Source: an uncultured Candidatus Saccharibacteria bacterium (GTDB lineage: Bacteria; Patescibacteriota; Minisyncoccia; UBA6257; 2-01-FULL-56-20). Taken from it: a stretch of DNA of 64,000 nucleotides. Under the pieces are notes generated by a model. It saw only the letters and a list, made by a program, of their open reading frames with translations. It made no database searches and was not told where the DNA came from. The position numbers were made by a program, and so were the translations under genes. Positions 2,522 through 55,016 of this stretch are shown piece by piece. The stretch covers positions 98,128-162,127 of the forward strand of contig CAYIAX010000001.1 in assembly GCA_964361595.1 (NCBI GenBank), written 5' to 3'. Each line of letters begins with the position of its first letter. Positions within the stretch are counted from its first letter, which is position 1.

Positions 2522-3055
2522 ATGAACATGGACGAAGAAAACAAAAATAACGGAGCGGCGGAGCCAGTGGTGGTTCCGGAAAACGATCTCGCGGCCAAAC
2601 TTAAAGATTGCGAAGTTAAGCGGGATGAGTATTTGGCCGGCTGGCAGAGAGCGAAAGCTGATTTCATTAATTACAAAAAGGAAGAGATACAGCGGCTCGA
2701 AGAAATGGCGCGTTACGGCAACGAAGAGCTGATTTACGAGGTGATTATGGTTTTAGATAGTTTTGATCTGGGTCTGCGAGCGCTCGAAAAAGCCGGACCA
2801 ATAGAGAAGGGAATTTATATGATTCGCACGCAGCTTGAGGATGTTCTGAAGCGCAGAGGCGTAACCAAGATTCCCATCTCGCCGGGCAGCCCGTTCGATC
2901 CGGCGTTTGCCGAAGCCGTGGCGGAGGCCGATCCGCCCGGCCCCGATTATCCGCCCGGCAGCGTGATTGAGGAAATCGAGAGCGGGTACAAACTTCACGG
3001 TAAAATCTTGAGACCGGCGCGCGTCAAAATAGCAAAAGGGAAAATAGATTCATGA
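2522..3055 (+). CDS. grpE: Nucleotide exchange factor GrpE
   Basis: 177 aa. Has the GrpE coiled-coil and beta-domain signature (dRk.......a..Dfln.R.......e.a.........ll.v.Dnl.lal). It is placed between hrcA and dnaK. Confidence 0.85.
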   Translation: MNMDEENKNNGAAEPVVVPENDLAAKLKDCEVKRDEYLAGWQRAKADFINYKKEEIQRLEEMARYGNEELIYEVIMVLDSFDLGLRALEKAGPIEKGIYMIRTQLEDVLKRRGVTKIPISPGSPFDPAFAEAVAEADPPGPDYPPGSVIEEIESGYKLHGKILRPARVKIAKGKIDS

Positions 3056-5071: not shown

Positions 5072-6032
5072 GAATCTTGTTACGCCGCGAATCATAAGGC
5101 CCAAGGGTTATTTTAAAGCCTTGGCGCTTGATGTTGCTGCGGTTTTGGCGGCTTTCTTTATGAGTTACGCCTTCAAGCTTTATTTAGCAGAACAAGCATC
5201 TTTGACGTTGGTTATAAGCATTTTGGGTTTATGGGCATTGATTTCGATCTTGCGTACTTTGACGACAAGAACCCTGGGGCGGCGCGCGCTCGTGGCGCTG
5301 CTCCAAACGGCGGCCCTGCTTGTGATCTTTTTAGGAATACCGCTTCAATTCCTGCTCTTGATCGCCGCCGGTGTTTTCATTTTCCTCTTTTGGGGCGAAG
5401 CCAGCGCTTTCACGGAGCTTACGCAAAGCCTGGAGGTAAGATTTTTTCGCACGACCCGCGCGCATGTGAACAGGCTCGTCACCGCCGCGATTATTTTTAC
5501 GCTTTTTATTTATATCGCCACGAACAGCCAAAATCTGTTCGTTTCTGAAAAGAGCTTCACGAAGGTTTACGGCCTTACCGCAGAGGCCGTAAAAAACAGC
5601 TATCCGGATTTGCGGCTTGACTCTACTTTCCGCACGTTTGCCGAAAGCGTTGCAAGGCGGGAGCTTGCAAAACGTCCTGAATATGCTGAGCTAAATACCC
5701 CTATGAAGGAAGCGGCCCTGGCCAAAGCAACGGATGAATCTATGGCGCAGATCCGCGAGACACTCAAGCTTTCCGCAGGAGGGGATGAACAAATGAGTTC
5801 GGTATTCTACAACTTTTTCCGCAGCACGATGGAAGGCTGGCAGAAAACTTTCGGGAAGGCATTTGTCGCGATTTGGGTTATAATCCTTTTCCTGATCCTC
5901 AAGGGTTTTGGCACGCTTTTTTACCTGGGGGTTGGCCTCATCGGTTACTTGCTTTATCAGGGCTTGATCGTTTTAAATGTCATCCATATTATCGGAGAAA
6001 GCCGATCGCGCGAGGTCATAGAATTTACATAA
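5037..6032 (+). CDS. Hypothetical polytopic membrane protein inserted between dnaK and dnaJ
   Basis: 331 aa with several hydrophobic segments. It overlaps the dnaK 3' end by 35 nt, so the true start may be the internal Met near 5160. No recognisable domain. Confidence 0.45.
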
Positions 6033-6135
6033 TTTCGAAGCACGAAACTCGAAATCCTAAACAAATTCAAATGAGGATAACTAGAAAAGACCAAAAATGT
6101 TTCGGATTTCGATATTCGAATTTCGGATTTTAACC

Positions 6136-13023: not shown

Positions 13024-13070
13024 GTCCGCGCGGCGTCACACAATGTGCACGCCGCTTTTTATTTTCATTT
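13024..13070 (+). terminator. Rho-independent terminator of 12275-13003, with the hairpin GCGGCGT...ACGCCGC followed by TTTTTATTTT
   Basis: A 7-bp GC stem followed by a T-run. Confidence 0.55.
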
Positions 13071-13195
13071 ACCAGAATATCTCGCCGCTTTGCGGCGAGT
13101 CATAAATAGCAGAGTGAAAATAACCCTGAGCCGAGTCGAAGGGTTACTATGCGTAGATACCGTAGCGCTTGCGGTGCTATAATTTATTTTCGCGA
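13046..13195 (+). ncRNA. Copy 1 of a two-copy structured element (candidate ncRNA or cis-RNA). Its paralog is at 45712-45885.
   Basis: About 80% identical to 45712-45885. The shared stems are ttattttca/gtgaaaataa and aaccct/agggtt, the latter with a variable loop. There is a terminal GC hairpin around cgcttgcgg. Confidence 0.4.
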
Positions 13196-13411
13196 AGCAA
13201 AAATATCTCGCTTGTCCGCCGTAACTTTAGTGAAGGCGGGAGCATTGTCGAGGGATTTCCTTGGAAGCGAAAATATTCAACGTCCGATGTCCCCGATATG
13301 TAATTTTTTGACATCGGATGCCCATGCGCTCGGAAGAATTTTGATTTTAGCGGACTTGACATTGTGCAATTCCGGTTTGGCCGACTTGACAAGGGTGGGG
13401 AAAGCCTACTA

Positions 13412-13440
13412 TTGACATGTTGCGGACAGTATGATAAGAT
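13412..13440 (+). promoter_or_regulatory. Sigma70-like promoter of the giant surface protein. TTGACA is followed by a 17-nt spacer and TAAGAT. Two further TTGACA boxes lie just upstream.
   Basis: TTGACA at 13412-13417 and TAAGAT at 13435-13440. Confidence 0.45.
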
Positions 13441-13447
13441 AATCGCC

Positions 13448-16400
13448 ATGCAAAATACTAATCGAAAGTTTGGAGTTTTATTTCTAACAGTCGCGACTTT
13501 GAGCCAGTTTGTTTTTCCCGGGCAGATTTTTGCCGACTGGACATCATTGAACACTGACCCCTTAGATTATCAGGCGCTACAGGCGTCGAATTCTGCGACT
13601 GACCCGGGCTGCAGCACATGCTGGTCAACAAGCGTGGCCGGCGCCGCGCCTGGCGAGCAGGTAAGTTTCCTTTTCTATTATCACAACTCGGGCGAGGTAA
13701 CCGCGGAGAATTTGCGCGTTACCATCGATTTTTGGGGCGACAGCCAGAACCTCACCGGTTCGGGCTTAATCTCCGCCGATAACGCTTCACCGGCTTTCGG
13801 CAGCGCGGTCATCCATGCCGTTCCAGGAGTGGAAAATCTCGGCCTTACTTTTGCCTACGGCAAATGGTATCCGAACCGCGACCAAGGCCCGGTGCCGGTC
13901 TCGAACAGCGGCACGGACACGAATGTTGCGGTAAATATCGGCAATATCGAACCCGGATGGAATACAGCCGGTTTCGTGGTTTTGGTTTTTAATGTTACCG
14001 GCAACGCAACCGGTGGCGGAGGCGGCGGAGGCGGAACTCCGGAAGGACAAATCTATGCGAGTCCGAATCCCTGCACCGCGACTGCGGGCCAGCAACTTTG
14101 CACAACTTATCTTACTTGGTCCACGACTAATGCCGCGAACGCCGAAGTTTGGGTTTCCGAAAACGGCGGCCCGGAAGTTTTGAACGCCAGGCTACCGTCG
14201 TGTTCGGACACACAGTGCGCGGCAAGCTGGATTCAGGCCGGGCACACTTACGAGTTTACTTTGTATGACAATGTAAATGGAGTGAAAAATCAGTTGAGTT
14301 CCATTAGCGTCCAAGGCATCAGCGAAGTAAGGCAGCTCACGCTCGGTTACTCAATTCTTAAGTCAACTTATAACGTTGGCGAATATCCAACGTTTGTTTT
14401 AACCGGTTTACCCGCGAGCCAAACGGTTACCGTGGCTTTCTATTCTACGGGGCCGAACGGCAGGGGCTGCAGCGGCGTTGGCCCCGCCTGCGTAAAGAGC
14501 ATCAATGTGGATGCAAGCGGCAGAGGCATGATCAATGGCGGTCTCTTTGTAACGGAAGACGCGGGTTCTTGGAATTCTTATTACACCTTTGAGGGACAGC
14601 AAGCGAACACGATTTTCTACGCAGTCACGTCGCCGGTTGTACCGGCGGCGACGCTTGCGATCAATCCCACGACAAACTCCGTGGCAGTTGGCAGCGTTGC
14701 CGCTTTTACGGCAATTTATGATCCCGATGGCGCTGGATCACAAACTCCGCAAAATGTTACGGCCGCGGCCGCTTGGTCTTCGGCTAATCCTGCGGTTGCA
14801 ACTTCCTTAGGCACCGGGCAATTCCGCGGCGTCTCGGCTGGCACGACACAAGTGACTGCTGTTTATGCCGGAATTACGGCGACGGCTTCGCTTACGGTTA
14901 CCGGAGTTGGCTGTACGAATCCGCAACCCACGCTCAATATCACGCCTCCCAGCGCGTCGGTTAGCGTAAACAATACGACTGGCTTTATGGCGATCTACGA
15001 TTCGGACGGCCCGGCCTGTTCGCAGCCCACGCAAGACGTGACAGCGAGCGCGGCTTGGACATCGGCGAATCCTTCGATTGCGTCCGCTTTGGGCAATGGC
15101 CAGTTCCGCGGCGTCGCAGGGGGCTCGACCCAAATCACCGCGAGCTACGGCGGTTTGGTTGCTACCGCGACCTTAAACGTAACTGTAATTCAAAATCCGA
15201 CGCTCACGATTATTCCTGATTCGGCGACTGTTGAAGCTAACGGCACGATGCAATTTGTCGCCCTCTTCGATCCGGACGGCTCCGGCTCGCAAGGCGCGCA
15301 GGATGTCTCGGCCTCTGCCGCTTGGTCTTCGTCCAATTCGGCAATCGCCGCCTCTTTGGGCAGTGGACGTTTCCGCGGCGCTGCCGCGGGCGGCGTAACC
15401 GTGACTGCGACTTACAGCGGGGCTACGGATACAGCCCAGCTTACTGTAACCGCTCCTCCTTGCACTGGCGCTTCGACCCTTGCGATCAATCCCGCAAATG
15501 CTTCTTTAAATGTTGGCCAGACTACGAGCTTCACGGCAGTTTACGATCCGGACGGTGCGGCTTGCCCGCAACCGGCCCAGGACGTTACGGGGAGCGCGAC
15601 TTTCACTTCTTCGAACCAATCCGTGCTGCAGCAAGTTGGTAGCGGACAATTCCGCGCGATTGCGGCCGGAACTGCCATTGTTACCGTTGTTTACCAGGGA
15701 GTTGCGGCCACGGCGGTCGTAACCGTAACCGGCGTGCAGAACCCGACTTTGACGATTGTACCTTCTACGCAAAGCGTGCCGGTTAATCAGACGACTAACT
15801 TTGTCGCCCTCTTCGACCCCGATGGAACTGGTTCGCAGGGCGTGCAGGACGTAACCGCTTCGGCTGTTTGGACTTCGTCCAATTCTTCAGTCGCAGCTTC
15901 TTTGGGCGCTGGCCGCTTCCGTGGCGTTACCGGTGGAAGTGTAACGATCACTGCGACTTTTGACGGCGCGACCGGTACGGCAAATTTGACCGTAACCGGA
16001 ACGCAGAATGCGACGCTCACAATTCTTCCGCAGACTTTGACGATTAATGTTAACCAGATTGGTACTTTCGTTGCGCTCTTTGATCCGGACGGATCCGGCG
16101 CGCAAGGCACGCAGGATGTTACCGCTTCGGCGGCCTGGACATCTTCGAATCCTTCGGTTGCGGTTGCTTTGAGCAACGGCCAGTTCCGCGGCGTTACGAA
16201 CGGCACTGTAACCGTAACCGCTACCTATAGCGGCACAACCGCTACGGCTACATTGATTATTTCGGGCACCGGCTGTGCAAGCGGAACGGGCACGCCCAGT
16301 TTAACGATTATTCCGGCTTCAAATTCAATTAACGCAAACCAAACCATCAGCTTCATCGCGCTCTATGATTCGGACGGCGCAAGCTGCCCCCAGGGCACGC

Positions 16401-18109
16401 AGGATGTAACCTCGCAAGCCGGCTGGAGTTCGAGTAACCAGAGCATCGCGGTGCAGGTTGGCGCGGGACAATTCCGCGGCCTGCAGCCTGGCACGGTAAC
16501 GATCACCGCTTTCTACGGCGGCGCAACCGCCACGGCCAGCTTGACCATTACGGGCACCGGCAACGCTCCCTTCGCGCAAACTTTAGCGGCCACGAATATC
16601 ACGCAGAACTCGGCTGCCTTGAACGGAACGGTGAATCCGAACGGAGCCTCGACTAATTACTACTTCGAATACGGCACGACTGCTTCCTTGGGCCAAGTTA
16701 CGGCTACGGCTACCCTGGGCGGCGGCTCGGTTGCACAAAACATTTTGGCTTTCGTTTCAGGCCTGGCGCCGAACGCGACTTATTTCTTCCGGATCGTAGC
16801 GACGAACAGCTTCGGCACATCGCAGGGCACGATCCTGACTTTCTCGACCGGCACGACCGGCGGCGTTACGGTGCCCACCGTAGTCACGCTTTCGGCCACG
16901 GTTACTTCGCAAACTTCGGCAACCTTGAACGGCCAAGTGAACCCGAATGGTTCGAATGCGCAAGCTTGGTTCGAATACGGCGTGAGCCCCTCGCTCCTTA
17001 ACTTCTCGACGAACGTTACAAACGTAGGCAGCGGCAGTTCCTTCACTAACTTCTCGCAATTCGTTTCGAATCTCCAGCCCGGTACGATTTACTACTACCG
17101 CGCGGTGGCTTCGAATGCTTTTGGCACAAGCCAGGGCCAGGTGCTTACCTTCGTAACCTCGGGTACGGGCGGCGGCACGGCGCCGACGGTGGTAACGCGC
17201 GTTGCGCAATTCGTTTCCAGGAACTCCGCGCTCTTGAACGGCGATGTGAATCCGAATGGCGGACTCACGACCGCCTGGTTCGAGTACGGCGCGACCGTTT
17301 CCTTGGGCTTGCGCACGGTGCCCTTGCCGATGGGTTCGGGTAATGGCGTCCAGCCGCTTTCGGCGGCCGTGACCGGCCTTTTGCCTAATACAACTTATTA
17401 CTTCCGCGCGGTTGCCCAGAATCAATTCGGCACTTCGCAAGGAGCGATTCTTACCTTCCGCACTCTCAATGGAACGACTGGCGGCGGAGGCGGCACGGTG
17501 ATCGTGCGGCCAGTGGCGACCACGACCGGAACGGCTTTAACCTGTATCACTTTGGTCCCGACCTTGAATGTTTCTGAACTTATCCCCGGACGTGAGTTCA
17601 CTTACACCGCGACTTACCGGAACGGCTGTGCCTTTGACCTCATGAATGCGGTCTTAAAGGTGGTCATGCCTGTCGAAACGGATTTCCTTTCGACGAGCTT
17701 CCCCAATTACACGCAAGATGGCCCGACTTTGACATTTACGCTCGGTCGGATTGCCCAAAACGTGGAAGTGGCGGTTAACATCCGCGGCCGCGTCAAGGAT
17801 TTCGCCAAGGAAGGGGATAATCTAATCTTCTCGGCGATTCTTACCTTCAACGACAACCGCAATGCTTTCCAGTCTATCATCGCTTACCTTACTGGTATCG
17901 TGAATGAACCGGGCACGGAAGTGGCGGGAGTGCAGGCGGAAGCCACAAGCACCTTGAGCGCAACGGTGAGCGACGCCTTCAAAGATATTTTGGGCAGCTG
18001 GATCTTCTGGCTTTTCCTCATCCTCCTTATTCTCTTCCTGATCTTCTGGTTCTTATTCCGCCGGCGTGAAGAGGAAGCGAGCGTCCGGAATATCCGCGTG
18101 GAATCCTAG
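13448..18109 (+). CDS. Giant cell-surface protein with a signal peptide, nine tandem Big_2 (bacterial Ig-like) domains, four FN3-like repeats, a DUF11-like domain and a C-terminal TM anchor
   Basis: About 1,550 aa. Repeat units of the form ...AAW(S/T)SSN..(A/V)A..LG.G(Q/R)FRG...G...(V/I)TA.Y.G..(A/G)TA.L(T/N)VTG. The FN3-like units read NYYFEYG...YFFR.VA.N.FGTSQG. The tail is FWLFLILLILFLIFWFLFRRREE. The Met at 13448 is chosen because the signal peptide follows it. Confidence 0.85.
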   Translation: MQNTNRKFGVLFLTVATLSQFVFPGQIFADWTSLNTDPLDYQALQASNSATDPGCSTCWSTSVAGAAPGEQVSFLFYYHNSGEVTAENLRVTIDFWGDSQNLTGSGLISADNASPAFGSAVIHAVPGVENLGLTFAYGKWYPNRDQGPVPVSNSGTDTNVAVNIGNIEPGWNTAGFVVLVFNVTGNATGGGGGGGGTPEGQIYASPNPCTATAGQQLCTTYLTWSTTNAANAEVWVSENGGPEVLNARLPSCSDTQCAASWIQAGHTYEFTLYDNVNGVKNQLSSISVQGISEVRQLTLGYSILKSTYNVGEYPTFVLTGLPASQTVTVAFYSTGPNGRGCSGVGPACVKSINVDASGRGMINGGLFVTEDAGSWNSYYTFEGQQANTIFYAVTSPVVPAATLAINPTTNSVAVGSVAAFTAIYDPDGAGSQTPQNVTAAAAWSSANPAVATSLGTGQFRGVSAGTTQVTAVYAGITATASLTVTGVGCTNPQPTLNITPPSASVSVNNTTGFMAIYDSDGPACSQPTQDVTASAAWTSANPSIASALGNGQFRGVAGGSTQITASYGGLVATATLNVTVIQNPTLTIIPDSATVEANGTMQFVALFDPDGSGSQGAQDVSASAAWSSSNSAIAASLGSGRFRGAAAGGVTVTATYSGATDTAQLTVTAPPCTGASTLAINPANASLNVGQTTSFTAVYDPDGAACPQPAQDVTGSATFTSSNQSVLQQVGSGQFRAIAAGTAIVTVVYQGVAATAVVTVTGVQNPTLTIVPSTQSVPVNQTTNFVALFDPDGTGSQGVQDVTASAVWTSSNSSVAASLGAGRFRGVTGGSVTITATFDGATGTANLTVTGTQNATLTILPQTLTINVNQIGTFVALFDPDGSGAQGTQDVTASAAWTSSNPSVAVALSNGQFRGVTNGTVTVTATYSGTTATATLIISGTGCASGTGTPSLTIIPASNSINANQTISFIALYDSDGASCPQGTQDVTSQAGWSSSNQSIAVQVGAGQFRGLQPGTVTITAFYGGATATASLTITGTGNAPFAQTLAATNITQNSAALNGTVNPNGASTNYYFEYGTTASLGQVTATATLGGGSVAQNILAFVSGLAPNATYFFRIVATNSFGTSQGTILTFSTGTTGGVTVPTVVTLSATVTSQTSATLNGQVNPNGSNAQAWFEYGVSPSLLNFSTNVTNVGSGSSFTNFSQFVSNLQPGTIYYYRAVASNAFGTSQGQVLTFVTSGTGGGTAPTVVTRVAQFVSRNSALLNGDVNPNGGLTTAWFEYGATVSLGLRTVPLPMGSGNGVQPLSAAVTGLLPNTTYYFRAVAQNQFGTSQGAILTFRTLNGTTGGGGGTVIVRPVATTTGTALTCITLVPTLNVSELIPGREFTYTATYRNGCAFDLMNAVLKVVMPVETDFLSTSFPNYTQDGPTLTFTLGRIAQNVEVAVNIRGRVKDFAKEGDNLIFSAILTFNDNRNAFQSIIAYLTGIVNEPGTEVAGVQAEATSTLSATVSDAFKDILGSWIFWLFLILLILFLIFWFLFRRREEEASVRNIRVES
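14650..16565 (+). repeat. Tandem ~210-nt coding repeats (nine copies) that encode the Big_2 domains
   Basis: Near-identical blocks recur, for example ttccgcggcg...accgtaaccgg and gatccggacgg. Confidence 0.8.
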
Positions 18110-27673: not shown

Positions 27674-30001
27674 ATGACTGCTTTCCCCTCGGTTCTAGTT
27701 ATTTTCGGCGCCACTGGTGATTTAGCGAGGCGCAAGCTCATCCCTGCGCTTTATCATTTGCACAGGAAAAAGCTTTTACCGCCGCTTTTCCAGATCGTGG
27801 CTTTCTCGCGCCGAGAACTTACAACCGAAGCGTTCCAGGAAATTGCGCGCGAAGCGGTCAAAAAAATTCCCGAAAGCACTCCCGCGGAGACAGAATCATT
27901 TTTGCGGCTCTTCGTTTACATCCAAGGATTTTTCGACCGGAAAACCGGCTATAAGCACTTGGCCGAATTCCTGGGATTTAAGGATAACGAGTGGCAAAAA
28001 TGCTCGAATAAGCTTTTTTATCTCGCGGTCCCTCCGACCTATTACAAAAAAGTTTTTGCCCAGCTTGCGGCCTCGCGGCTCACTGAACCTTGTCCGCCGG
28101 AAGAAGGCTGGACGCGCGTCGCGGTGGAAAAGCCCTTTGGCAAAGATTTGAAGACCGCCGAAGACCTGGACAAGATGCTGGGGCGGCTCTTTAAGGAAGA
28201 CCAGATCTACCGAATCGATCATTATTTAGGCAAAGAGACGATCCAAAACATCCTCGCATTCCGATTTTCCAACTCATTTCTCGATCCTGCTTGGAACAAT
28301 AAATCCGTTCAAGGCATCCAGGTGAGATTTTTGGAAAAATTGGGGCTTGAGGGCCGCGGGGAATTCTATGACGGCGTGGGCGCTTTGCGTGACGTCGGTC
28401 AAAACCACCTTCTGCAGATGCTAGCCTTAATTACCATGCGCAATCCGGGCGTGTTTGATGCGAATGCGGTGCGTCATGCCCGCGCAGAAATATTAAAAGC
28501 TTTGCGTCCGCTCACGAAGCGAAACGTGAACGCGCAGATCTTGAAGGGGCAGTATCAAGGATTCCGGGCAGAAAAGAATATCTCGACGAATTCGCGGACC
28601 GAAACTTATTTCCGGATCAAAACTTTCATTGATCTACCCGAATGGTCTGGCGTGCCGATCCTGCTTGAAGGCGGGAAAGCGCAGGATGTGAATGCCGTGG
28701 ACATCAGCGTTGTTTTCAGGCATAAAATGCCCTGTCTCTGTGTAGGCAAAAAACATTCGCAGAATATTTTGCGTTATGAAGTCCAGCCGCAGGAGCGCAT
28801 TTCGACCTCATTTTGGGTCAAGCAGCCTGGAACCGAAATGCAGATCGAGGAAAAGGATTTCGCTTTTGATTACAAACAAGCTTTTGCCGGGGCGAATATT
28901 TTTGATGCTTATGAGCGTTTACTCATCGATGCGTTTGCGGGCAATCAGACTCTTTTTGTCAGCACGGAAGAAATTATGGCAAGCTGGAAGTTCGTCGATT
29001 CCGTGGAAACCGCTTGGAAGAATTCGGAACTCTTGGCCTACAAAACAGGTTCAGCCGAAGCGCGCAAGGCCGTTTTCCCGGAGGCTGAAATCGGCAAGAC
29101 GATCGGCATGGTCGGTTTGGGTAAAATGGGCAAAAATCTCGCTTTGCATTTGCGTGAGCAGGGCTGGCAGGTCACGGGTTATGATCCGGCGGCTAAATTA
29201 CCGGAGATAAAAATGGCCAAAAATTTGAGCGAACTTACGCGTTCGTTGCCGCAACCCCGCGTGATTTGGCTGATGTTGCCGGCTGGCGCTGGTACGGAAG
29301 CAGGTAAGTTTAAAGAGACTCCGACTGACGCGGTTTTAAAAGAACTCATTCAGTTTTTGGCAAAAGGCGATATCGTGATCGACGGCGGCAATTCTTTTTA
29401 TGAAACTACCGTGCGCCGGGCGGCATTATTCAAAAAACACGGGATTAATTTCTTGGATGTCGGAGTTTCGGGCGGTCCGCAGGGCGCGCGCGCAGGCGCA
29501 TCCTTGATGATCGGAGGCGATGCAAAAGCGTTTACTGCAGTCGAAGAGCTCTTTCGCGATCTGGCCGTCCCGGGCGGATATGTTCACTTAGGGAAGTCAG
29601 GAGCGGGCCATTTTACGAAAATGGTGCATAATGGAATTGAGTACGGAATGATGCAGGCGATTGCCGAAGGCTTCGCCATTATGAAGCAATCGCCCTTTGA
29701 GCTTGATCTGCGCAAAGTGGCGGATATTTATAACCACGGCAGCGTGATCGAATCCCGATTGATCGGCTGGCTCGAAAAAGCCTTACGCGAGCACGGAGAG
29801 AATCTAGAAAAGGTTTCCGGCACCGTGGGGCACTTGGGCGAAGGCGAATGGACCGTGAAAACCGCCAAGAAACTCAAGGTTCCTGTATCGGCTATTGAGA
29901 CCGCTTTCAAGTTCCGTATGCAATCCAAGCGTAACCCGAGTTATATCGGCAAAATTCTTTCGGCCTTGCGGAACCAGTTCGGCGGACACAGCGTTAATTA
30001 A
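27674..30001 (+). CDS. zwf-gnd: Fused glucose-6-phosphate 1-dehydrogenase (Zwf, ~470 aa) and short-form 6-phosphogluconate dehydrogenase (Gnd-like, ~300 aa)
   Basis: N-terminus has VIFGATGDLARRKL, RIDHYLGKE and the Zwf C-terminal YKTGSA(E)... pattern. The C-terminus has IGMVGLGKMGKNLA (Rossmann fold), GGNSFY and VHNGIEYGMMQAIAEGF (6PGDH). A single continuous ORF of 775 aa. Confidence 0.85.
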   Translation: MTAFPSVLVIFGATGDLARRKLIPALYHLHRKKLLPPLFQIVAFSRRELTTEAFQEIAREAVKKIPESTPAETESFLRLFVYIQGFFDRKTGYKHLAEFLGFKDNEWQKCSNKLFYLAVPPTYYKKVFAQLAASRLTEPCPPEEGWTRVAVEKPFGKDLKTAEDLDKMLGRLFKEDQIYRIDHYLGKETIQNILAFRFSNSFLDPAWNNKSVQGIQVRFLEKLGLEGRGEFYDGVGALRDVGQNHLLQMLALITMRNPGVFDANAVRHARAEILKALRPLTKRNVNAQILKGQYQGFRAEKNISTNSRTETYFRIKTFIDLPEWSGVPILLEGGKAQDVNAVDISVVFRHKMPCLCVGKKHSQNILRYEVQPQERISTSFWVKQPGTEMQIEEKDFAFDYKQAFAGANIFDAYERLLIDAFAGNQTLFVSTEEIMASWKFVDSVETAWKNSELLAYKTGSAEARKAVFPEAEIGKTIGMVGLGKMGKNLALHLREQGWQVTGYDPAAKLPEIKMAKNLSELTRSLPQPRVIWLMLPAGAGTEAGKFKETPTDAVLKELIQFLAKGDIVIDGGNSFYETTVRRAALFKKHGINFLDVGVSGGPQGARAGASLMIGGDAKAFTAVEELFRDLAVPGGYVHLGKSGAGHFTKMVHNGIEYGMMQAIAEGFAIMKQSPFELDLRKVADIYNHGSVIESRLIGWLEKALREHGENLEKVSGTVGHLGEGEWTVKTAKKLKVPVSAIETAFKFRMQSKRNPSYIGKILSALRNQFGGHSVN

Positions 30002-30154
30002 TCTAAAAACCGAAGCACGAAGCACGAAGCACGAAATTCGAAACAAATTTAAAATGAAAAAAGCAAATAAAAAAATTAAAAAAATTCCGGATTTCCTAGC
30101 CTCGACTTGCCGTCGAGGCGAGACGGGCGATATTCGGATTTCGAATTTCTGCTT

Positions 30155-31123
30155 ATGATGCGCGACGCGATCAAAAATTTTAATAAGCAGTTTGCGTTCG
30201 AGCCGGTGATTGAATTTCCAAATAAGTTCAGCGTGGCCGAAGGTTTCGTAGTCGTCGGCATGGGCGGTTCGCATTTGGCCGCCGACCTTTTGAAAATTTG
30301 GCAACCCGATCTTGATCTTTATATACATTCCGATTACGGTCTGCCGCCGCTCCCTGCACAAAGGCTGCGGCACAGCTTAATTATTTTAAGTTCATATTCG
30401 GGGAATACAGAAGAGGTGCTCGACGCTTACGAACAAGGTTTGCAGGCCAAGCTTAATCTGCTTGTGATCGCCGCGGGCGGCAAGTTGATCACAAAAGCTA
30501 AGGCCGACGGCGTGTCGCACATCCTTTTGCCCGCGACCGGTATTCAGCCGCGTTCGGCTTTGGGCTACAGCCTTCGCGCCTTTCTCCTTGCTTTAGGCGA
30601 AGAAGGCGCGCTAAAAGAAACTCGCGAGCTCGAAAAAACCTTAAAGCCGGAAGCATTTGAATCTGCCGGCAAGGAATTAGCCGTGCGGCTCAAAGGGTTT
30701 GTGCCGGTAATTTATGCTTCGAGTAAAAACGGGCCGCTTGCTTACAACTGGAAAATCAAATTCAACGAAACCGGTAAAATTCCTGCCTTCTTTAACCTCG
30801 TACCCGAACTCAATCACAACGAAATGACGGGATTTGACGTCAAGGACAGTACGCGCGAGCTTTCGCGTCAGTTCAAGTTTTTATTACTCAAGGACGTAGA
30901 AGATGAGGAGAAAAACCAAAAGCGAATGGAGATTTTGGAGAGTTTATACCGCGCCCGCGGCCTTTCCGTGGAAGCGATCCAGATGAAAGGTAGAAATATT
31001 TTTGAAAAAATGTTCAATTCACTTCTCTTGGCGGATTGGACGGCATTGCACATCGCAGAACAGTACGGCTTAGAGGCAGAACAGGTGCCGATGGTGGAAG
31101 AGTTTAAAAAACTAATCGCTTAA
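30155..31123 (+). CDS. Bifunctional phosphoglucose/phosphomannose isomerase (SIS domain, archaeal-type PGI/PMI)
   Basis: SIS motifs VVGMGGSHLAADLL and ILSSYSGNTEE. The start is set at the ATGATG that overlaps the stop of an upstream 34-codon ORF. Confidence 0.7.
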   Translation: MMRDAIKNFNKQFAFEPVIEFPNKFSVAEGFVVVGMGGSHLAADLLKIWQPDLDLYIHSDYGLPPLPAQRLRHSLIILSSYSGNTEEVLDAYEQGLQAKLNLLVIAAGGKLITKAKADGVSHILLPATGIQPRSALGYSLRAFLLALGEEGALKETRELEKTLKPEAFESAGKELAVRLKGFVPVIYASSKNGPLAYNWKIKFNETGKIPAFFNLVPELNHNEMTGFDVKDSTRELSRQFKFLLLKDVEDEEKNQKRMEILESLYRARGLSVEAIQMKGRNIFEKMFNSLLLADWTALHIAEQYGLEAEQVPMVEEFKKLIA

Positions 31124-32270: not shown

Positions 32271-32591
32271 ATGACTATTGACGAATTTCGCGCAGTCGAT
32301 TTGCGCGTGGCCACAATCCTTGAAGCCAGCCGCGTGGAGGGTTCGGATAAACTTGTGGCCTTGAAAATCACGGTCGGCGAGACGGAGCGCGAGCTTCTGG
32401 CCGGCATCGGCAAGGCCTATGAGCCGGGCGAGTTAATCGGCAAGCAAATCGTCGTCGTTTACAACCTTGACCCTAGAATAATGATGGGCCGGGAAAGCCA
32501 AGGGATGCTTCTGGCCGCTTCCGGGCCCGACGGCAAGCCAGTTCTACTTGTGCCCGAAAAAGAAGTCGAACCAGGAACACGCATAAATTAA
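32271..32591 (+). CDS. tRNA-binding protein of the CsaA/Trbp111 family (Myf domain)
   Basis: 106 aa. VDLRVATILEASRVEGSDKL...ESQGMLLAA is the OB-fold tRNA-binding domain. Confidence 0.75.
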   Translation: MTIDEFRAVDLRVATILEASRVEGSDKLVALKITVGETERELLAGIGKAYEPGELIGKQIVVVYNLDPRIMMGRESQGMLLAASGPDGKPVLLVPEKEVEPGTRIN

Positions 32592-32629
32592 ATTCGAAGC
32601 ACGAAGCACGAAATCCGAAACAAATTCGA

Positions 32630-32983
32630 ATGACAGAAGTTCATAAAAAATACGACCTGGAAAAACGAACTTTTGAGTTCGCAAAAAGAGTTAGGGATTT
32701 TGTAAGTAAACTTCCGAGGACCGTATCTGCTATCGAGGACTGTAAGCAGCTTGTGCGTTCATCTGGTTCTGTCGGTGCAAATTATATTGAGGCCAATGAA
32801 TCTTTGAGTAAAAAAGATTTTTTACTCCGAATTAAAATTTGCCGAAAAGAAGCCAAGGAAAGTAAATATTGGCTTGAACTTCTTAATGTCGACAAGAATT
32901 TACTAGCTGAACACAGCTATTTAATAAAAGAAGCAACTGAACTAATGATGATTTTCAGTGCTATTATGAGGAAGTCGCAATAA
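32630..32983 (+). CDS. Four-helix-bundle protein (23S rRNA intervening-sequence protein family)
   Basis: 117 aa. ...FEFAKRVRDFVSKLP...VRSSGSVGANYIEANES.SKKDFLLRIKICRKEAKESKYWLELL matches TIGR02436/PF05635. Confidence 0.75.
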   Translation: MTEVHKKYDLEKRTFEFAKRVRDFVSKLPRTVSAIEDCKQLVRSSGSVGANYIEANESLSKKDFLLRIKICRKEAKESKYWLELLNVDKNLLAEHSYLIKEATELMMIFSAIMRKSQ

Positions 32984-33024
32984 GTTTCGGATTTCGATAT
33001 TCGAATTTCGAATTTAAGAAAACT

Positions 33025-33552
33025 ATGGATATCTTCGCGCACGGACTCTGGACAAATGCAATTTTTGAGTCGGTTGCCCGGGTAAAGCAAAAAACTCGAT
33101 CCCGGCGTGAAATTTGGCTGGCAATTTTATTTGGCGTTGCGCCTGATATTTTTGCTTTTGGCAGTTTATTAATAACCAATATTGTTACAGGATTTGGAAA
33201 CTATATGTTAATTCCCAGCTATGTTTACGGTCTTTACAACTTCTCTCATAGTTTGCTGATTTTTATATCGGTTTTCATAATTGTTGGGGCTATACGCGGA
33301 CGTCCGTATTGGCTGCTTTCCGCTTGGGGATTACATATTTTAATAGATTTGTATAGTCATTCGAGATCTTTTTTTGCCACTCCATTCTTATTTCCCTTAT
33401 CGTCTTTTACGGTAAGCGGCATAAGCTGGGATACGCCGATATTTTTCGCACTGAACTACATCGCTTTAGCGGTTGTTTACTTGTGGCTATATGCTTGGCG
33501 GAAATCAAAAGTTGCTCAAAATGAAAATCACCACTATACTGGACATCAATGA
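33025..33552 (+). CDS. Hypothetical integral membrane protein
   Basis: 175 aa, 5-6 hydrophobic helices. Confidence 0.45.
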   Translation: MDIFAHGLWTNAIFESVARVKQKTRSRREIWLAILFGVAPDIFAFGSLLITNIVTGFGNYMLIPSYVYGLYNFSHSLLIFISVFIIVGAIRGRPYWLLSAWGLHILIDLYSHSRSFFATPFLFPLSSFTVSGISWDTPIFFALNYIALAVVYLWLYAWRKSKVAQNENHHYTGHQ

Positions 33553-36529: not shown

Positions 36530-37126
36530 ATGAAAAGAATTTTTGTCGGAATTAAAACTCCAGAATTACTACAGCAGAAAATTTTGGCATGGAAGACAGA
36601 TTTTTTAGACGGCCGTCCATCCTTCGCTAAAGCTACGGATGGCAAAGTGCGCTGGCTTAAAGGCAAGAATTTGCATATTACGCTAGTACCCCCTTGGTAC
36701 GAGGAAGCGGAGAAAATAGCTAGTCGCGAATTGCAAATCGAAAAAGCGGTTGCCGATTTCAAACCGTTCGAGCTGAATTTCAAAAAATTGATGTTCGGGC
36801 CGGATCCTAAAAACCCTCGCTTGATTTTGGCGGAAGGGCCGGATGGCGATTCGCCTCGCTCTAGCGAAGGCGGAGCGGGCACGTTGAAAGCGACAAGAGA
36901 CAAGATTTTAAATGAAATAGGAAAAGAACCAGAGAAACGACCTTTGAAATTGCATTTAACTGTGGCGCGTTTCCGGCCGGAAGAATTTTCCGGTTTTCCG
37001 ATCAAAAAACTCGAAGAGGAAATTGATTGGAAGCTTGCGGTCAATTCCGTAATTCTTTACGAATCCCAGCTTGCCCACGGCGGCGCGGAGTACGAGATTT
37101 TAAAAGAATTTAAGCTGCTCTTATAG
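36530..37126 (+). CDS. thpR: RNA 2',3'-cyclic phosphodiesterase (2'-5' RNA ligase ThpR/LigT, 2H phosphoesterase)
   Basis: Two H-x-T/S-x motifs: HITLVPP and HLTVARF. Confidence 0.75.
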   Translation: MKRIFVGIKTPELLQQKILAWKTDFLDGRPSFAKATDGKVRWLKGKNLHITLVPPWYEEAEKIASRELQIEKAVADFKPFELNFKKLMFGPDPKNPRLILAEGPDGDSPRSSEGGAGTLKATRDKILNEIGKEPEKRPLKLHLTVARFRPEEFSGFPIKKLEEEIDWKLAVNSVILYESQLAHGGAEYEILKEFKLLL

Positions 37127-37160
37127 GCGTAAAGTTAATTATTTTTGTAAAAGGAACTTC

Positions 37161-37200
37161 AAAATCATCCTTAAATCCTTAAGGATTTAAGGATGATTTT
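37161..37200. terminator. Perfect 40-bp palindrome AAAATCATCCTTAAATCCTTAAGGATTTAAGGATGATTTT. It is a bidirectional intrinsic terminator between thpR (+) and the cyclase (-).
   Basis: A-run, hairpin, T-run. It lies between convergent genes. Confidence 0.65.
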
Positions 37201-37457
37201 GGTGCGAGTGGCCCCGGAACGCGAGCAAGTTCGTAACGCGGATGAATAAATTTATTTTTTATGCACATATTTCAGGTGCTGTGCTATAGCACAGCACCAT
37301 GATTCATCATAGCACCGGCAAAGTGAGGTTCGCGGTGTTTGTTCGATTAAAAATCTCGAAAAAAACCTGTTGGCCGTTTTCATTTTCACCATATAACCGA
37401 ACGAGTTTACTATCCTAAATGACGATCGTAATTAGGGATAGTAAATCAGGTTATTTT

Positions 37458-39203: not shown

Positions 39204-39284
39204 TGCGTACTTTTAAAAATTTGAAATTCGAATATCGAAATCCGAAACAATTTTCGAATTTCGTACTTCGTGCTTCGAATTTGT

Positions 39285-45711: not shown

Positions 45712-45885
45712 GCTTTTTTATTTTCACTTACCAGAATACCCCGCCGCTCTGCGGCGAAGATGAATAGTGGAGTGAAAATAACCCTGCCGCCCGGCTTAGC
45801 TGGGCGAGCCTCGCCACAGGCGGGAGTCGGGTCGAAGGGTTACCTGTATAGATGCCGCACCGCTTGCGGTGCGGTAATTCATCTG
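45712..45885 (+). ncRNA. Copy 2 of the two-copy structured element (see 13046-13195). It carries a ~40-nt insertion in one hairpin loop.
   Basis: Conserved blocks TTTTTATTTTCAyTTACCAGAATA, CGCCGCTyTGCGGCGA, GAGTGAAAATAACCCTG and GTCGAAGGGTTAC. The insertion sits inside the aaccct/agggtt hairpin loop. Confidence 0.4.
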
Positions 45886-45962: not shown

Positions 45963-48089
45963 ATGCCAAATCATTTCCAGCTAAAATCGAATTTTAAACC
46001 GGCTGGCGATCAACCGCGAGCGATCGATGCGCTTGTTTCGGGTTTGGAAAAAAATTTGAAACATCAAACTTTGCTTGGCGTAACCGGTTCGGGCAAGACC
46101 TTTACGATCGCGAATGTAATCGCCAAGGTCAACAAACCCGCGCTCGTGATTGCGCATAATAAAACATTGGCGGCCCAGCTCACCAATGAGTTTAAGGAGT
46201 TTTTTCCGCATAATTCGGTCAACTATTTCGTTTCCTATTACGATTATTACCAACCGGAAGCATATTTACCGACCACCGACACTTATATCGGCAAAGAGGC
46301 TTTGATTAACGAGGAAATTGATAAACTGCGCCATGCGGCGACGACCGCGCTCTTAACGCGCCGGGACGTGATCGTGGTCGCTTCAGTCTCTTGCATTTAT
46401 GGTTTGGGCGCGCCGGAGATATATGCGCAAAATATTTTCCATTTCCAAACGGGGGATTTAGTGAAGCGCGAGGAACTTGCCCGCAAACTGATCGAACTTC
46501 AATTTAAGCGAACCAATGCGGATTTGAAGCGGGGGACCTATCGCTTGCGCGGCGACACCTGGGAAATTATGCCGCCCGACCGGGAGGTAATTTACACTTT
46601 TGACCTTAAGGGTGGAGTGATCGAAAAAATCTACGAAATTGATCCCGTGCAGGGCTTCCGGCCCGGCAAAACTCCGACTGTACAGGAAATCTTCATTGCG
46701 CCCGCCAAGCACTTCATCACGCTTGTACCCGAGCGCGAACGGGCCATTAAGGCAATCAAAGCCGAGCTCAAGGAGCGGCTTAAATACTTCGAGGAGCACA
46801 AGAAGTTTCTCGAAGCCGAACGGCTGGAACGGCGCACCAAATTCGACATCGCCATGATCCGCGCCGTTGGCTATTGCCACGGCATCGAAAACTATTCCCG
46901 GCACCTTTCCGGCCGCGGCCAGGGCGAACCGCCCGCCACGCTTTTGGATTATTTTTTTACCCGCCGACTTGGCCACCATAGCTTCAGCGCTGGTGGAAGC
47001 CTTGGCGAAGGCGGGCCTTCGCAGCGCGGAAGCGTGCAGACGAAACGCGATCGTCAGGAAGAGCTGGACTTCCTGACCATAATTGACGAATCGCACGTTA
47101 CTGTGCCGCAGATCTCCGGCATGTTCGCAGGCGATGCTTCGCGCAAGCGTACTTTGATTGAATACGGTTTCCGTTTGCCTTCCGCGGCCGACAACCGTCC
47201 GCTCACCTTCAGAGAATTCGAGGCGAGGGCAGGCCGGACAATTTATACTTCGGCGACGCCAGGGTCTTACGAAAAGAAGGTCAGCAAGCAAACCGTAGAA
47301 CAGATAATCCGCCCCACCGGTTTGGTGGATCCTAAAATCACCGTGCGGCCGGCGCGCGGACAGATTGACGACCTTTTGCCGCGCATTGAAGGACGGGTAA
47401 GGGAGAAAGAGCGGGTGCTTGTAACCACGCTTACAAAGCGCATGGCCGAGGATTTAAGCGCGTATCTCGAGGAGCTCAAGATAAAGGTCACATATCTCCA
47501 CAGCGACGTAAAAACTCTGGATCGGATCAGGATTTTGACTTTATTACGGAAAGGGTCCGCCAGCGGCGGATTCGACGTTTTGGTCGGCGTAAACCTGTTG
47601 CGCGAAGGCTTGGACCTGCCGGAAGTTTCATTAGTCGCGATTCTTGACGCCGATAAGGAGGGGTTCCTGCGGAGCGAAACGTCGCTGATCCAGACCATTG
47701 GCCGGGCGGCCAGGAACGTGGCCGGCGAAGTTTTGATTTACGCCGACCAAATCACAGGCTCGATTGAGCGGGCGCTTAAAGAAACCGAACGGCGCCGTAA
47801 GCTCCAGTTGGAATACAATAAAAAACACGGGATTACGCCCAAAACCATCGTCAAGGCTATTACTGATATTCTGCCGAATGTGGACGAGATCCTGAAACTG
47901 GAGCTAAAACCAGTGCCGATATCAAAAGCCGCCCTCGAGGAGATGATTGCGGCGAAGGACAGGGAGATGAAGGCGGCGGCGAAACGCCTGGATTTCGAAT
48001 TGGCAGCACTTTTACGGGACGAGCTAAAATTGCTTTATAAAAAACAAGCCCAAAAGACAAAACCCAAGGAGCATTCAACTAAAGACTAA
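45963..48089 (+). CDS. uvrB: Excinuclease ABC subunit B
   Basis: 708 aa. Walker A GVTGSGKTFT, helicase motifs, the beta-hairpin, and the C-terminal UvrC-binding coiled coil. Confidence 0.95.
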   Translation: MPNHFQLKSNFKPAGDQPRAIDALVSGLEKNLKHQTLLGVTGSGKTFTIANVIAKVNKPALVIAHNKTLAAQLTNEFKEFFPHNSVNYFVSYYDYYQPEAYLPTTDTYIGKEALINEEIDKLRHAATTALLTRRDVIVVASVSCIYGLGAPEIYAQNIFHFQTGDLVKREELARKLIELQFKRTNADLKRGTYRLRGDTWEIMPPDREVIYTFDLKGGVIEKIYEIDPVQGFRPGKTPTVQEIFIAPAKHFITLVPERERAIKAIKAELKERLKYFEEHKKFLEAERLERRTKFDIAMIRAVGYCHGIENYSRHLSGRGQGEPPATLLDYFFTRRLGHHSFSAGGSLGEGGPSQRGSVQTKRDRQEELDFLTIIDESHVTVPQISGMFAGDASRKRTLIEYGFRLPSAADNRPLTFREFEARAGRTIYTSATPGSYEKKVSKQTVEQIIRPTGLVDPKITVRPARGQIDDLLPRIEGRVREKERVLVTTLTKRMAEDLSAYLEELKIKVTYLHSDVKTLDRIRILTLLRKGSASGGFDVLVGVNLLREGLDLPEVSLVAILDADKEGFLRSETSLIQTIGRAARNVAGEVLIYADQITGSIERALKETERRRKLQLEYNKKHGITPKTIVKAITDILPNVDEILKLELKPVPISKAALEEMIAAKDREMKAAAKRLDFELAALLRDELKLLYKKQAQKTKPKEHSTKD

Positions 48090-54914: not shown

Positions 54915-55016
54915 ACTGAATAGGCTATACTTACCTCGCGAGTGACCCACCCTGGTTCCCAACCGGTGGGAAATTAAGTTTTAAATTCGAAGCACTAAGC
55001 ACGAAATTCGAAATTT

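Follow-up and report, generated by a model that had tools for sequence, protein, structure and literature searches.

The closest described relatives of the element reported here are the intervening sequences (IVSs) in the 23S rRNA of Leptospira, Coxiella burnetii, Brucella and Xanthomonas, which contain an open reading frame (ORF) for S23p, or IVS protein (IVP). Such S23p/IVP-carrying sequences were reportedly described by Ralph and McClelland in 1993. The present element is a recurrent block found at five sites in a 64-kb stretch of DNA (contig CAYIAX010000001.1; the window, meaning the whole stretch analysed). A first-pass annotation of the window had taken the block for a regulatory leader or, alternatively, a small dispersed repeat. 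The blocks are likely to be the terminal inverted arms of a small palindromic cassette, IVS-like, mobile and horizontally spread, with derivatives that resemble miniature inverted-repeat transposable elements (MITEs), and not the leader of a regulon.

Short dispersed repeats are the second group of comparable systems. Correia/NEMIS (Neisseria), ERIC/IRU (enterobacteria), RUP (pneumococcus) and MIC231 (Bacillus cereus) are MITEs or mobile insertion cassettes (MICs). Correia transcripts are cut by RNase III, and a MIC carries a passenger gene without a transposase. The roles proposed for REP/BIME, ERIC and Correia elements are RNase III cleavage, protection of the 3' end of the upstream cistron and decoupling of cistrons. 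To our knowledge, the known MITE families are lineage-specific. Rickettsia palindromic elements (RPEs), reportedly described by Ogata et al. in 2000, are said to be repeats of ~100-150 bp that can lie in frame inside protein-coding genes. The short tandemly repeated repetitive (STRR) sequences of cyanobacteria, reportedly described by Mazel et al. in 1990, are heptamer repeats made of tandem 7-nt units, and Vioque is said to have found them in 1997 inserted also in helix P12 of RNase P RNA.

The protein encoded in IVSs has relatives with other functions. Avd, the accessory protein of diversity-generating retroelements (DGRs), is a pentamer that binds nucleic acid and reverse transcriptase. PF05635 proteins are homologous to Avd (PMC10053308), and the Xanthomonas S23p is a homopentameric toroid (PMC4990558). 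In Coxiella, RNase III excision of an S23p-encoding IVS with an inverted-repeat stem is established experimentally. The homologous ORF there has no usable Shine-Dalgarno (SD) sequence and is not translated without an engineered ribosome-binding site (RBS) (PMC4990558).

Anatomy of the Element

The five sites are labelled A to E (Table 1). With up to three mismatches, the 19-mer GAAGCACGAAATTCGAAAC, which joins the last GAAGCAC unit to the following CGAAAyyCGAAAC, has six matches at these five sites (6037, 30026, 32603, 39251/39258 on the minus strand, and 54996); shuffled sequences lead to an expectation of 0.06. The 27-mer GTTTCGGATTTCGATATTCGAATTTCG, the second of two modules distinguished in the first-pass annotation, is exact at 6099 and 32984 and has one mismatch at 39222 (minus strand), against an expectation of 0.00. 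The near-identical blocks reported earlier are thereby confirmed. A profile built from 32 related hairpins finds no copies in the window beyond the five sites. GAAGCAC-type heptamers number one at site A, three at site B (in the 5' arm) and two each at sites C, D and E, the second being GAAGTAC at D and TAAGCAC at E. The two to three tandem GAAGCAC units ascribed earlier to each first module are thus present at B and C; site A has one, and at D and E the second unit is a variant.

The two modules, described earlier as separate, belong together. In a repeat scan they appear as imperfect inverted repeats (32588-32626 and 32979-33017, 39 nt, 79% complementary). Module 1 is the 5' arm and module 2 the 3' arm of a single palindromic element. 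The arms are arrays of 7-nt units (CGAAnnn / nnnTTCG). The unit vocabulary comprises CGAAGCA, CGAAATC, CGAAATT and CGAAACA in one arm, and their complements plus CGATATT in the other. At the three two-arm sites without an ORF, the arms are 4 to ~70 nt apart and each site folds as one long stem, with energies of -23.3, -39.7 and -20.7 kcal/mol at A, B and D (z = -3.3, -3.7 and -3.1). The short hairpin proposed inside module 2 is merely the palindromic TTCGA..TCGAA of adjacent units and its fold is not significant (z = -1.9).

Site C is the only ORF-bearing copy in the window. The four-helix-bundle gene, which had been counted among the genes downstream of the block, lies inside the element, between its arms, and is the cargo, or only gene, of the cassette. 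The ORF matches PF05635 (E 9.6e-14, 51.9 bits, cut-off 33.8) and TIGR02436, 'four helix bundle protein' (E 7.9e-20, 71.1 bits, cut-off 24), and the nearest solved structure is PDB 2RLD (E 2.2e-12). The gene is flanked by those of a tRNA_bind protein (32271-32591) and a YdjM-like protein (33025-33552). The two arms form a 38-bp duplex of -41.8 kcal/mol, and the stem ends 8 nt short of the IVP ATG.

The window thus contains one intact cassette, three miniatures and one solo arm. Site A consists of a 5' arm (6033-6070), a relic ATG at 6071, a 27-nt spacer and a 3' arm (6098-6130). A relic small ORF (sORF) of 20 aa runs from 6071 to 6133 and stops 2 nt before the dnaJ ATG. In site B, the relic ATG at 30054 is followed by an A-rich insert, which contains a GC-rich sub-hairpin of its own, and then by a 3' arm at 30126-30150; the second block noted earlier at 30128-30150 is present and is this arm, in degenerate form. 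In the relic sORF of site B (30054-30158, 34 aa), the TGA stop and the pgi ATG overlap as ATGA. Both relic sORFs begin at the former IVP ATG and continue through the 3' arm. The relic sORFs at A and B may couple translation; this is treated as incidental because site D has no equivalent sORF. At site E, the arm stands in the same position relative to the uvrA ATG as it does to the IVP ATG in intact cassettes. The uvrA copy reported earlier is therefore present and abuts the ATG, as a solo 5' arm: no partner 3' arm is found at the site, its fold is not significant (z -0.9) and it matches the profile weakly (E 1.7e-3).

Table 1. Copies of the element in the window and the parts of the intact cassette.
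Feature	Position	Strand	Sequence and context
Site A, ORF-less miniature	6033..6130	+	Fills the spacer from the stop of ORF 5037-6032 to the dnaJ ATG (6136)
Site B, ORF-less	30011..30154	+	Between the putative G6PD-6PGD fusion gene (stop 30001) and the pgi-like SIS gene (ATG 30155)
Site C, whole	32589..33017	+	
Site C, 5' arm	32589..32629	+	TAAATTCGAAGCACGAAGCACGAAATCCGAAACAAATTCGA; from the TAA stop of the upstream tRNA-binding-domain gene to the IVP ATG
Site C, IVP ORF, 117 aa, four-helix bundle	32630..32983	+	PF05635 23S_rRNA_IVP; TIGR02436
Site C, 3' arm	32984..33017	+	GTTTCGGATTTCGATATTCGAATTTCGAATTTAA; directly follows the IVP stop codon; YdjM-like gene starts at 33025
Site D, minimal ORF-less	39217..39282	-	5' arm, 4-nt loop, 3' arm; FecR-like stop 39285, CHASE2 cyclase ATG 39203
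Site E, solo 5' arm	54982..55016	+	TAAATTCGAAGCACTAAGCACGAAATTCGAAATTT; directly abuts the uvrA ATG (55017)

Position Relative to Genes and Orthologous Junctions

All five sites lie between protein-coding genes, and each copy has the orientation of the downstream gene and ends 0-26 nt before its ATG. The two-arm copies start 0-9 nt past the stop codon of a co-directional upstream gene and end 2-26 nt before the next ATG. They fill the whole of a short spacer, from stop to ATG, and for this reason seem to abut start codons. Start codons are not their target: the copies come after stop codons and occupy operon spacers. The earlier placing of the element at gene starts is correct in that every copy is near a downstream ATG, and needs amending for the two-arm copies, which begin after stop codons.

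Proteins named Candidatus Liptonbacteria, Parcubacteria, Patescibacteria or Minisyncoccia share at most 71% identity with the DnaJ of the window, and a DnaJ identical to it is encoded on a metagenome contig (ENA ERZ1292629). The sample record is named Hain_H43_01um, which is read as denoting the Hainich groundwater site and the 0.1-um filter fraction. From these relatives and this contig, the host is taken to be a bacterium of the candidate phyla radiation (CPR)/Patescibacteria (groundwater). Its genes rarely show an SD sequence: a motif of any SD-like kind precedes only 4 of 48 window genes. The lack of AGGAGG where an RBS would be expected, which had been used to argue for a special leader, is therefore uninformative. 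A TATAAT-like box stands 7-12 nt ahead of the ATG of many window genes, as would be expected if their mRNAs were leaderless. Consensus scans for sigma-70-like promoters and for terminators, made at sites B, C and D, find nothing inside these three sites.

Junctions were compared in relatives whose DnaJ is 68-71% identical to that of the window. The gene order dnaK - X (331-347 aa) - dnaJ is kept in three relatives. The spacer between X and dnaJ measures 103 nt in the window, where it contains the element, and is empty in two relatives, with 11 nt in L201 and 4 nt in L202. In L203/L204 (68% DnaJ identity), the spacer is 128 nt long (2873-3000) and holds another heptamer hairpin, with CAAAAT units (AAAATCAAAATGCAAATATCAAAGATCAAAATGAC...), directly after the same TAA. 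Either this hairpin was inserted independently at the same place or it is a copy that has diverged strongly. The spacer between the FecR-like and CHASE2 cyclase genes is 81 nt long with the element in the window and 38 nt long and empty in L203, where a TAATAT box stands 5 nt before the ATG. Through the insertions, junctions measuring 4-38 nt in relatives have become structured spacers of 66-144 nt in the window. At site A, with a TAGAAT box just ahead of the insertion, the element may now serve as the 5' untranslated region of a dnaJ mRNA that was once leaderless. Presence at orthologous sites is sporadic among relatives, as it is for MITEs. The first-pass annotation had proposed this comparison and taken absence from the corresponding positions of relatives as a sign of a selfish repeat.

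The empty junctions also bear on the possibility that the element brings its own promoter. The T-rich 3' arm would then offer -10-like hexamers near the ATG (GATATT and GAATTT, with A at position 2 and T at position 6) and restore leaderless-type transcription after the insertion had parted a gene from its own TATAAT box. Element-free window genes typically have such a box 7-12 nt before the ATG, and the empty sites of relatives have one just before the ATG (TAATAT in L203 at the site D junction, AATACT in L202 at the site A junction). In the window, the insertion at site A is closely preceded by a TAGAAT box. GAATTT is found 6 nt ahead of the pgi ATG and 9 nt ahead of the ydjM ATG. These hexamers, however, lack the T at position 1, unlike the organism's own boxes, and the consensus scan gives no promoter-like site at B, C or D. 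The same arms are also found in either orientation and in phyla whose genes have ordinary SD sequences. An outward promoter function is extremely unlikely on this evidence.

The Family in Other Genomes

The exact 20-mer TTCGGATTTCGATATTCGAA of the 3' arm, searched against a one-genome-per-species collection, occurs in at least 119 loci of metagenome-assembled genomes (MAGs) from many phyla. Among the matches listed, the MAGs are labelled Pirellulales (Planctomycetota), Omnitrophota, Parcubacteria, Saccharibacteria and Peribacteria (Patescibacteria), Verrucomicrobiota, Desulfobacterales (Desulfobacterota), Syntrophobacterales, Aminicenantes, Binatia, Bacteroidetes (Bacteroidota), Calditrichota, Brocadiaceae, Gammaproteobacteria and others, and the GC content of the host loci is 34-67%. 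In the same listed matches, a profile anchored on the 20-mer has a conserved block of ~66 nt with sharp edges. When the upstream 150 nt are folded, the usual form in these matches is a single hairpin, mostly of 145-170 nt (66-144 nt in the window). The consensus of the hairpin is AAATnCGAAGCACGAAATnCGAAATTCGAAACAAATTCAAATnACCAAAATTCAAATGnTCAAAAC, a variable apex, and GTTTTGGACATTTGAA..GAATTTGTTTCGGATTTCGATATTCGAATTTCGGATTT. The modules recognised earlier are the basal halves of this full hairpin, and the window copies are therefore short versions of it. Extra copies occur at ~1 per 28-43 kb in the fetched 8-kb host loci, compared with five sites in the 64 kb of the window. Extrapolated to whole genomes, the copy number is of the order of tens to a hundred.

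Full-length IVP ORFs number seven, that of the window and those of six loci among the matches listed (L087, L081, L099, L095, L011 and L079); a few fragments also occur. Every one of the seven lies exactly between the arms. The window IVP is 61-65% identical to the IVPs of cassettes in other phyla. The IVP ATG falls within the motif CAAATGACC, whose pairing partner in the 3' arm of full-length copies, for instance L081, is GGTCATTTG. Hairpins without an ORF keep this start motif and therefore look like internal-deletion derivatives. They are far more numerous than the ORF-bearing copies, just as MITEs are more numerous than the elements they derive from. The distances between partner arms cluster at 60-130 and 380-660 nt only, and the longer class encodes IVP and no transposase. 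A transposase-encoding parent with the same ends was not found in a search extending up to 800 nt upstream of the core.

To remove selection bias, 80 metagenomic IVP loci were fetched by protein similarity alone. In this set, a 5' heptamer arm ending at ...CGAAACAAATTCAA directly before the ATG is present at 62 of 75 IVP genes, the same layout as at site C, and a 3' arm directly follows the stop codon at 63 of 78; both arms are present at 52. For 60 cassettes with strong arms, the duplex has a median of 49 bp and -41.8 kcal/mol; the whole start codon is paired in 32 of these cassettes, and at least 2 nt of it in 43. Of 42 IVP cassettes, 38 have the same orientation as the upstream gene, and none is opposed to both neighbours.

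The ORF-less copies of other genomes, again among the matches listed, occur in both orientations relative to the flanking genes (29 versus 18), and 47 of 53 lie between co-directional genes. A single copy lies convincingly inside a gene. This is L063 (Aminicenantes MAG WVZO01000032.1, ~3601-3753, minus strand), a full-size hairpin in frame within a 1951-aa ORF for a nonribosomal peptide synthetase. It is read through as an insert of ~50 aa between the adenylation motifs A2 (LKSGGAYLPID) and A3 (YTSGSTGKPKG). Most of the other copies that seemed to lie inside ORFs were rejected as over-extended starts or wrong-frame ORFs, which result from crude ORF calling. Of 2.9 million viral contigs in IMG/VR, only two (L205 and L206) hold the exact 20-mer, each within a complete hairpin of ~157 nt; both are viral as labelled in IMG/VR. 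No blastn match to phages or plasmids as possible vehicles was obtained in INPHARED or PLSDB.

These distributions, with the empty junctions above, bear on the regulon leader proposed in the first-pass annotation. As a host promoter, operator or SD-independent translation leader, the element would co-ordinate dnaJ, pgi, ydjM, the CHASE2 cyclase gene and uvrA. The common orientation of the five window copies and their ends 0-26 nt before an ATG agree with this, as does the solo arm that abuts the uvrA ATG exactly as it would an IVP ATG. In hosts of many phyla, the IVP ORF is driven, or at any rate preceded, by the A-rich 5' arm with no SD sequence; this arm could be an SD-independent leader. 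Many copies in other genomes, among the matches listed, are followed by an RBS and an ATG. The absence of the element from orthologous junctions of relatives nevertheless largely refutes a leader function. Elsewhere the element lies beside unrelated genes in unrelated phyla, in either orientation, and once inside a gene. The window genes downstream of it have no common function, no promoter-like site is predicted at the three sites scanned, and the missing SD sequence is the rule of this genome. A shared regulatory leader is thus very unlikely. The other reading considered in the first-pass annotation, a small dispersed repeat, is supported, with the correction that it does not insert at gene starts as such.

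Arm Pairing and Co-variation

The arms of one element fit each other better than the arms of different elements. Own-arm duplexes are more stable than cross-element ones (-36.0 versus -31.8 kcal/mol; 47 of 74; Wilcoxon p = 0.003). In some elements all units are changed together, with TTCG replaced by TTAG in the 3' arm and CGAA by CTAA in the 5' arm. Unit classes are fully concordant between arms, with 31 CG/CG, 8 AG/AG and zero CG/AG or AG/CG elements. Co-variation was assessed by these duplex energies and class counts in place of RNAalifold: in 32 hairpins aligned with MAFFT, heptamer slippage shifts the 5' arms relative to one another, and as a result RNAalifold recovers no more than a local stem of 7 bp.

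Two more specific pairing motifs were rejected. A GCA/AUA 3x3 internal loop is not a conserved motif, as the GCAC, GTGC and ATAT unit types combine freely between arms. The upstream TTTGAAT units, considered as G.U-paired partners of the core, are the upper part of the same 3' arm.

Long, stable stems with a unit vocabulary strongly conserved across phyla could also be expected of a hairpin kept by its hosts as a beneficial signal for processing or stabilising RNA between cistrons. Such a role would fit the strong preference for spacers that separate co-directional genes (47/53) and for places directly behind stop codons, and RNase III cleaves the analogous stems of rRNA IVSs (PMC4990558). The sporadic presence among relatives and the occurrence of both orientations are at odds with it, and no strand asymmetry in G.U and A.C pairs is seen. 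Purifying selection against insertions elsewhere in compact genomes would, moreover, give the same positional bias. Domestication as an RNA signal is therefore considered unlikely.

The reading as a mobile IVS-like cassette has to be weighed against several observations. In 81 hairpins, there is no strand asymmetry: folding favours the plus strand in 42 and the minus strand in 39, and G.U pairs number 389 and 386. The symmetry is therefore a property of the DNA, with no sequence sign of a one-strand RNA under selection, and the co-variation of the arms could equally reflect symmetry at the DNA level. The GCAC and ATAT unit types of opposite arms are unmatched, so perfect pairing is not the sole constraint. 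Near-identity of the arm units across phyla exceeds what is expected of a purely neutral parasite and hints at a sequence-specific partner. Taxon labels were taken from the MAG records, and some bins are possibly contaminated. Since the relatives used for the junctions are distant, an empty site may at any single position reflect loss rather than gain. At the element loci, no mobility enzyme, clear target-site duplication or recent transposition event was found. The flanks show a weak preference (T before AAAT in 37%, A after ATTT in 48%). TAA or TAAA stands on both sides of sites A and D, and the ends of the element are themselves palindromic.

Comparison with Described Systems

The cassette resembles 23S rRNA IVSs in most of its structure. 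Both have a PF05635/TIGR02436 protein encoded in the loop, a length of ~430-560 nt, ORF-less versions and a sporadic, horizontally transferred distribution. In both, the SD sequence before the ORF is poor or absent and the start region lies in or near the stem. The terminal complementary stem is 28 bp in Coxiella (PMC4990558) and 38-50 bp here. Unlike IVSs, the present elements lie in mRNA spacers, outside rRNA, and occur in some tens to a hundred copies per genome by extrapolation. A further, probable difference is that their arms consist of 7-nt units in arrays, whose vocabulary is shared across phyla. Excision would here be analogous, and cutting an mRNA has other consequences than cutting an rRNA.

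The rRNA location that defines an IVS is not found. The only Rfam match in the window is a tRNA, and none of the 80 related cassettes (0/80) has clustered rRNA motifs. Three loci with isolated single matches to rRNA motifs, two of them core-selected, show no rRNA and no Rfam family. The elements would therefore work like IVSs without being IVSs. Rfam has no match to the element itself in the window at the gathering threshold, and for six full-size loci at E<=1 it gives only sub-threshold plant microRNA-precursor noise overlapping the hairpins.

With MITEs and MICs, the miniature copies share short length, high copy number, lack of an ORF, terminal inverted repeats, a location in presumably transcribed intergenic spacers, long predicted RNA hairpins and an apparent origin by internal deletion. 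They differ from them in that no transposase-encoding parent was found, the only ORF-bearing relative encoding a 120-aa four-helix bundle, and no clear target-site duplication was found at the loci studied. The family also spans many phyla with near-identical arms, which sets it apart from MITEs. The in-frame intragenic copy L063 is comparable to RPEs. RPEs are not known outside Rickettsia, are unrelated in sequence and have no known ORF-bearing form.

Tandem 7-nt units are also the hallmark of STRR sequences, although the units differ in sequence. Plasmids of Anabaena, Pseudanabaena and Bernardetia carry distant IVP genes (at most 45% identity), and these genes lie between inverted arrays whose units are ~7 nt long and quite different in sequence. 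In Anabaena cylindrica pANACY.01 (L207), the 'four helix bundle protein' gene lies between cas2 and cas1; in Pseudanabaena galeata pPg_04 (L208), it lies just upstream of cas1. The third locus is on the Bernardetia plasmid (L209). Units in the arrays of the three loci include AAGTAAA, TCTTCCT/CGCCTTT and AAATCTA. These arrays suggest that heptamer-array arms may be a general trait of PF05635 cassettes. A link between STRR sequences and IVP cassettes is possible on the basis of the three loci; the literature searched contains no published link between STRR sequences and an IVP gene.

Avd (PDB 4DWL) has a homologous four-helix-bundle fold. The surroundings of the window ORF do not resemble a DGR: there is no reverse transcriptase among the flanking genes, no pair of template and variable repeats near the ORF in a repeat scan, and no PADLOC match. 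No description of an extra-ribosomal IVP cassette family was found in the literature searched, whose coverage is incomplete, so that a prior description is possible.

Other Features of the Window

A second, unrelated repeat of 45-59 nt occurs at 56571-56629 in uvrA, at 46957-47015 (inverted) in the ORF 45963-48089, and at 13211-13255; two of the copies are 83% complementary. Inside coding regions it is in frame at UvrA residues 519-538 and is read as FTRRLGHHSFSAGGSLGEGG on the other strand's frame in the ORF starting at 45963. It is possibly another intragenic selfish repeat. A direct repeat of 43 nt is present at 13056-13098 and 45715-45757 with 91% identity (TTTTTATTTTCAyTTACCAGAATAyCyCGCCGCTyTGCGGCGA) and ends in a CGCCGC-N4-GCGGCG hairpin.

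Upstream of site B, one ORF of 775 aa (27674-30001) joins G6PD_N and G6PD_C to NAD_binding_2 and 6PGD, and the pgi-like SIS gene is next. From its domain content, it would be a fused oxidative pentose-phosphate enzyme (glucose-6-phosphate and 6-phosphogluconate dehydrogenase) in a CPR genome. A perfect palindrome of 19 bp with a 4-nt loop (CAAAATCATCCTTAAATCCTTAAGGATTTAAGGATGATTTTG) at 37160-37201 on the minus strand was flagged as terminator-like and is downstream of the converging ORF 36530-37126 and cyclase gene. Repeats of ~270-550 nt occupy 14696-17260 within a 1581-aa ORF (13364-18109), and the coding region at 61265-63553 has periodic repeats of 81-147 nt. The two internally repetitive regions probably encode repeat-domain surface proteins.

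Proposed Mechanism and Implications

The full unit of the cassette measures ~480-560 nt. It consists of a 5' arm of 4-5 heptamer units (AAATyCG AAGCACG AAATyCG AAATTCG AAACAAATTCAA) that ends at the ATG, an ORF of ~120 aa for the four-helix bundle, and the complementary 3' arm. Internal deletion would give rise to the ORF-less hairpins. Judged from its distribution, the element is presumably mobile. Because 38 of 42 IVP cassettes share the strand of the upstream gene, whose stop codon the cassettes directly follow, they would be co-transcribed with this gene by read-through. A stem of ~40-50 bp would usually bury the IVP start codon. Its 3' half would be transcribed ~400 nt later, so that the ORF would be translatable only on nascent RNA or after opening of the stem, and IVP translation would largely be confined to the former. 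By analogy with the Coxiella IVS, the stem may be a substrate of RNase III, and the operon transcript may be cut at the insertion. The element may, in addition, have a secondary effect on how the downstream genes are transcribed or translated.

A wider proposal is tentative and rather doubtful. PF05635 'IVS protein' genes would be the single gene of pan-bacterial palindromic cassettes with inverted arms of 4-5 heptamers, of which 23S IVSs, ORF-less hairpins and perhaps the cyanobacterial heptamer repeats are manifestations. A pentameric, Avd-like protein would bind the arrays, possibly one unit per subunit, and act in propagation or processing in a manner unlike known transposases. If true, this would account for the conservation of the unit vocabulary from phylum to phylum and supply a function for a protein family that has lacked one for 30 years.

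The finding joins three topics that are usually treated apart, the ORF of rRNA IVSs, MITE-like dispersed hairpins and Avd-like four-helix bundles. An IVS-type cassette lives mostly outside rRNA, in the operon spacers of very diverse uncultivated bacteria. Near-identical arms of a ~150-nt element in hosts of 34-67% GC are unusual, as bacterial dispersed repeats are normally lineage-specific; they imply either intense transfer across phyla or a universal sequence-specific partner. A stress or repair regulon in CPR bacteria should not be deduced from the recurrent motif, which ought to be masked during automated annotation. In a CPR genome of ~1 Mb with leaderless-type genes, the insertions turn tight gene junctions into structured spacers of ~100 nt, which must affect the expression of the operons concerned.

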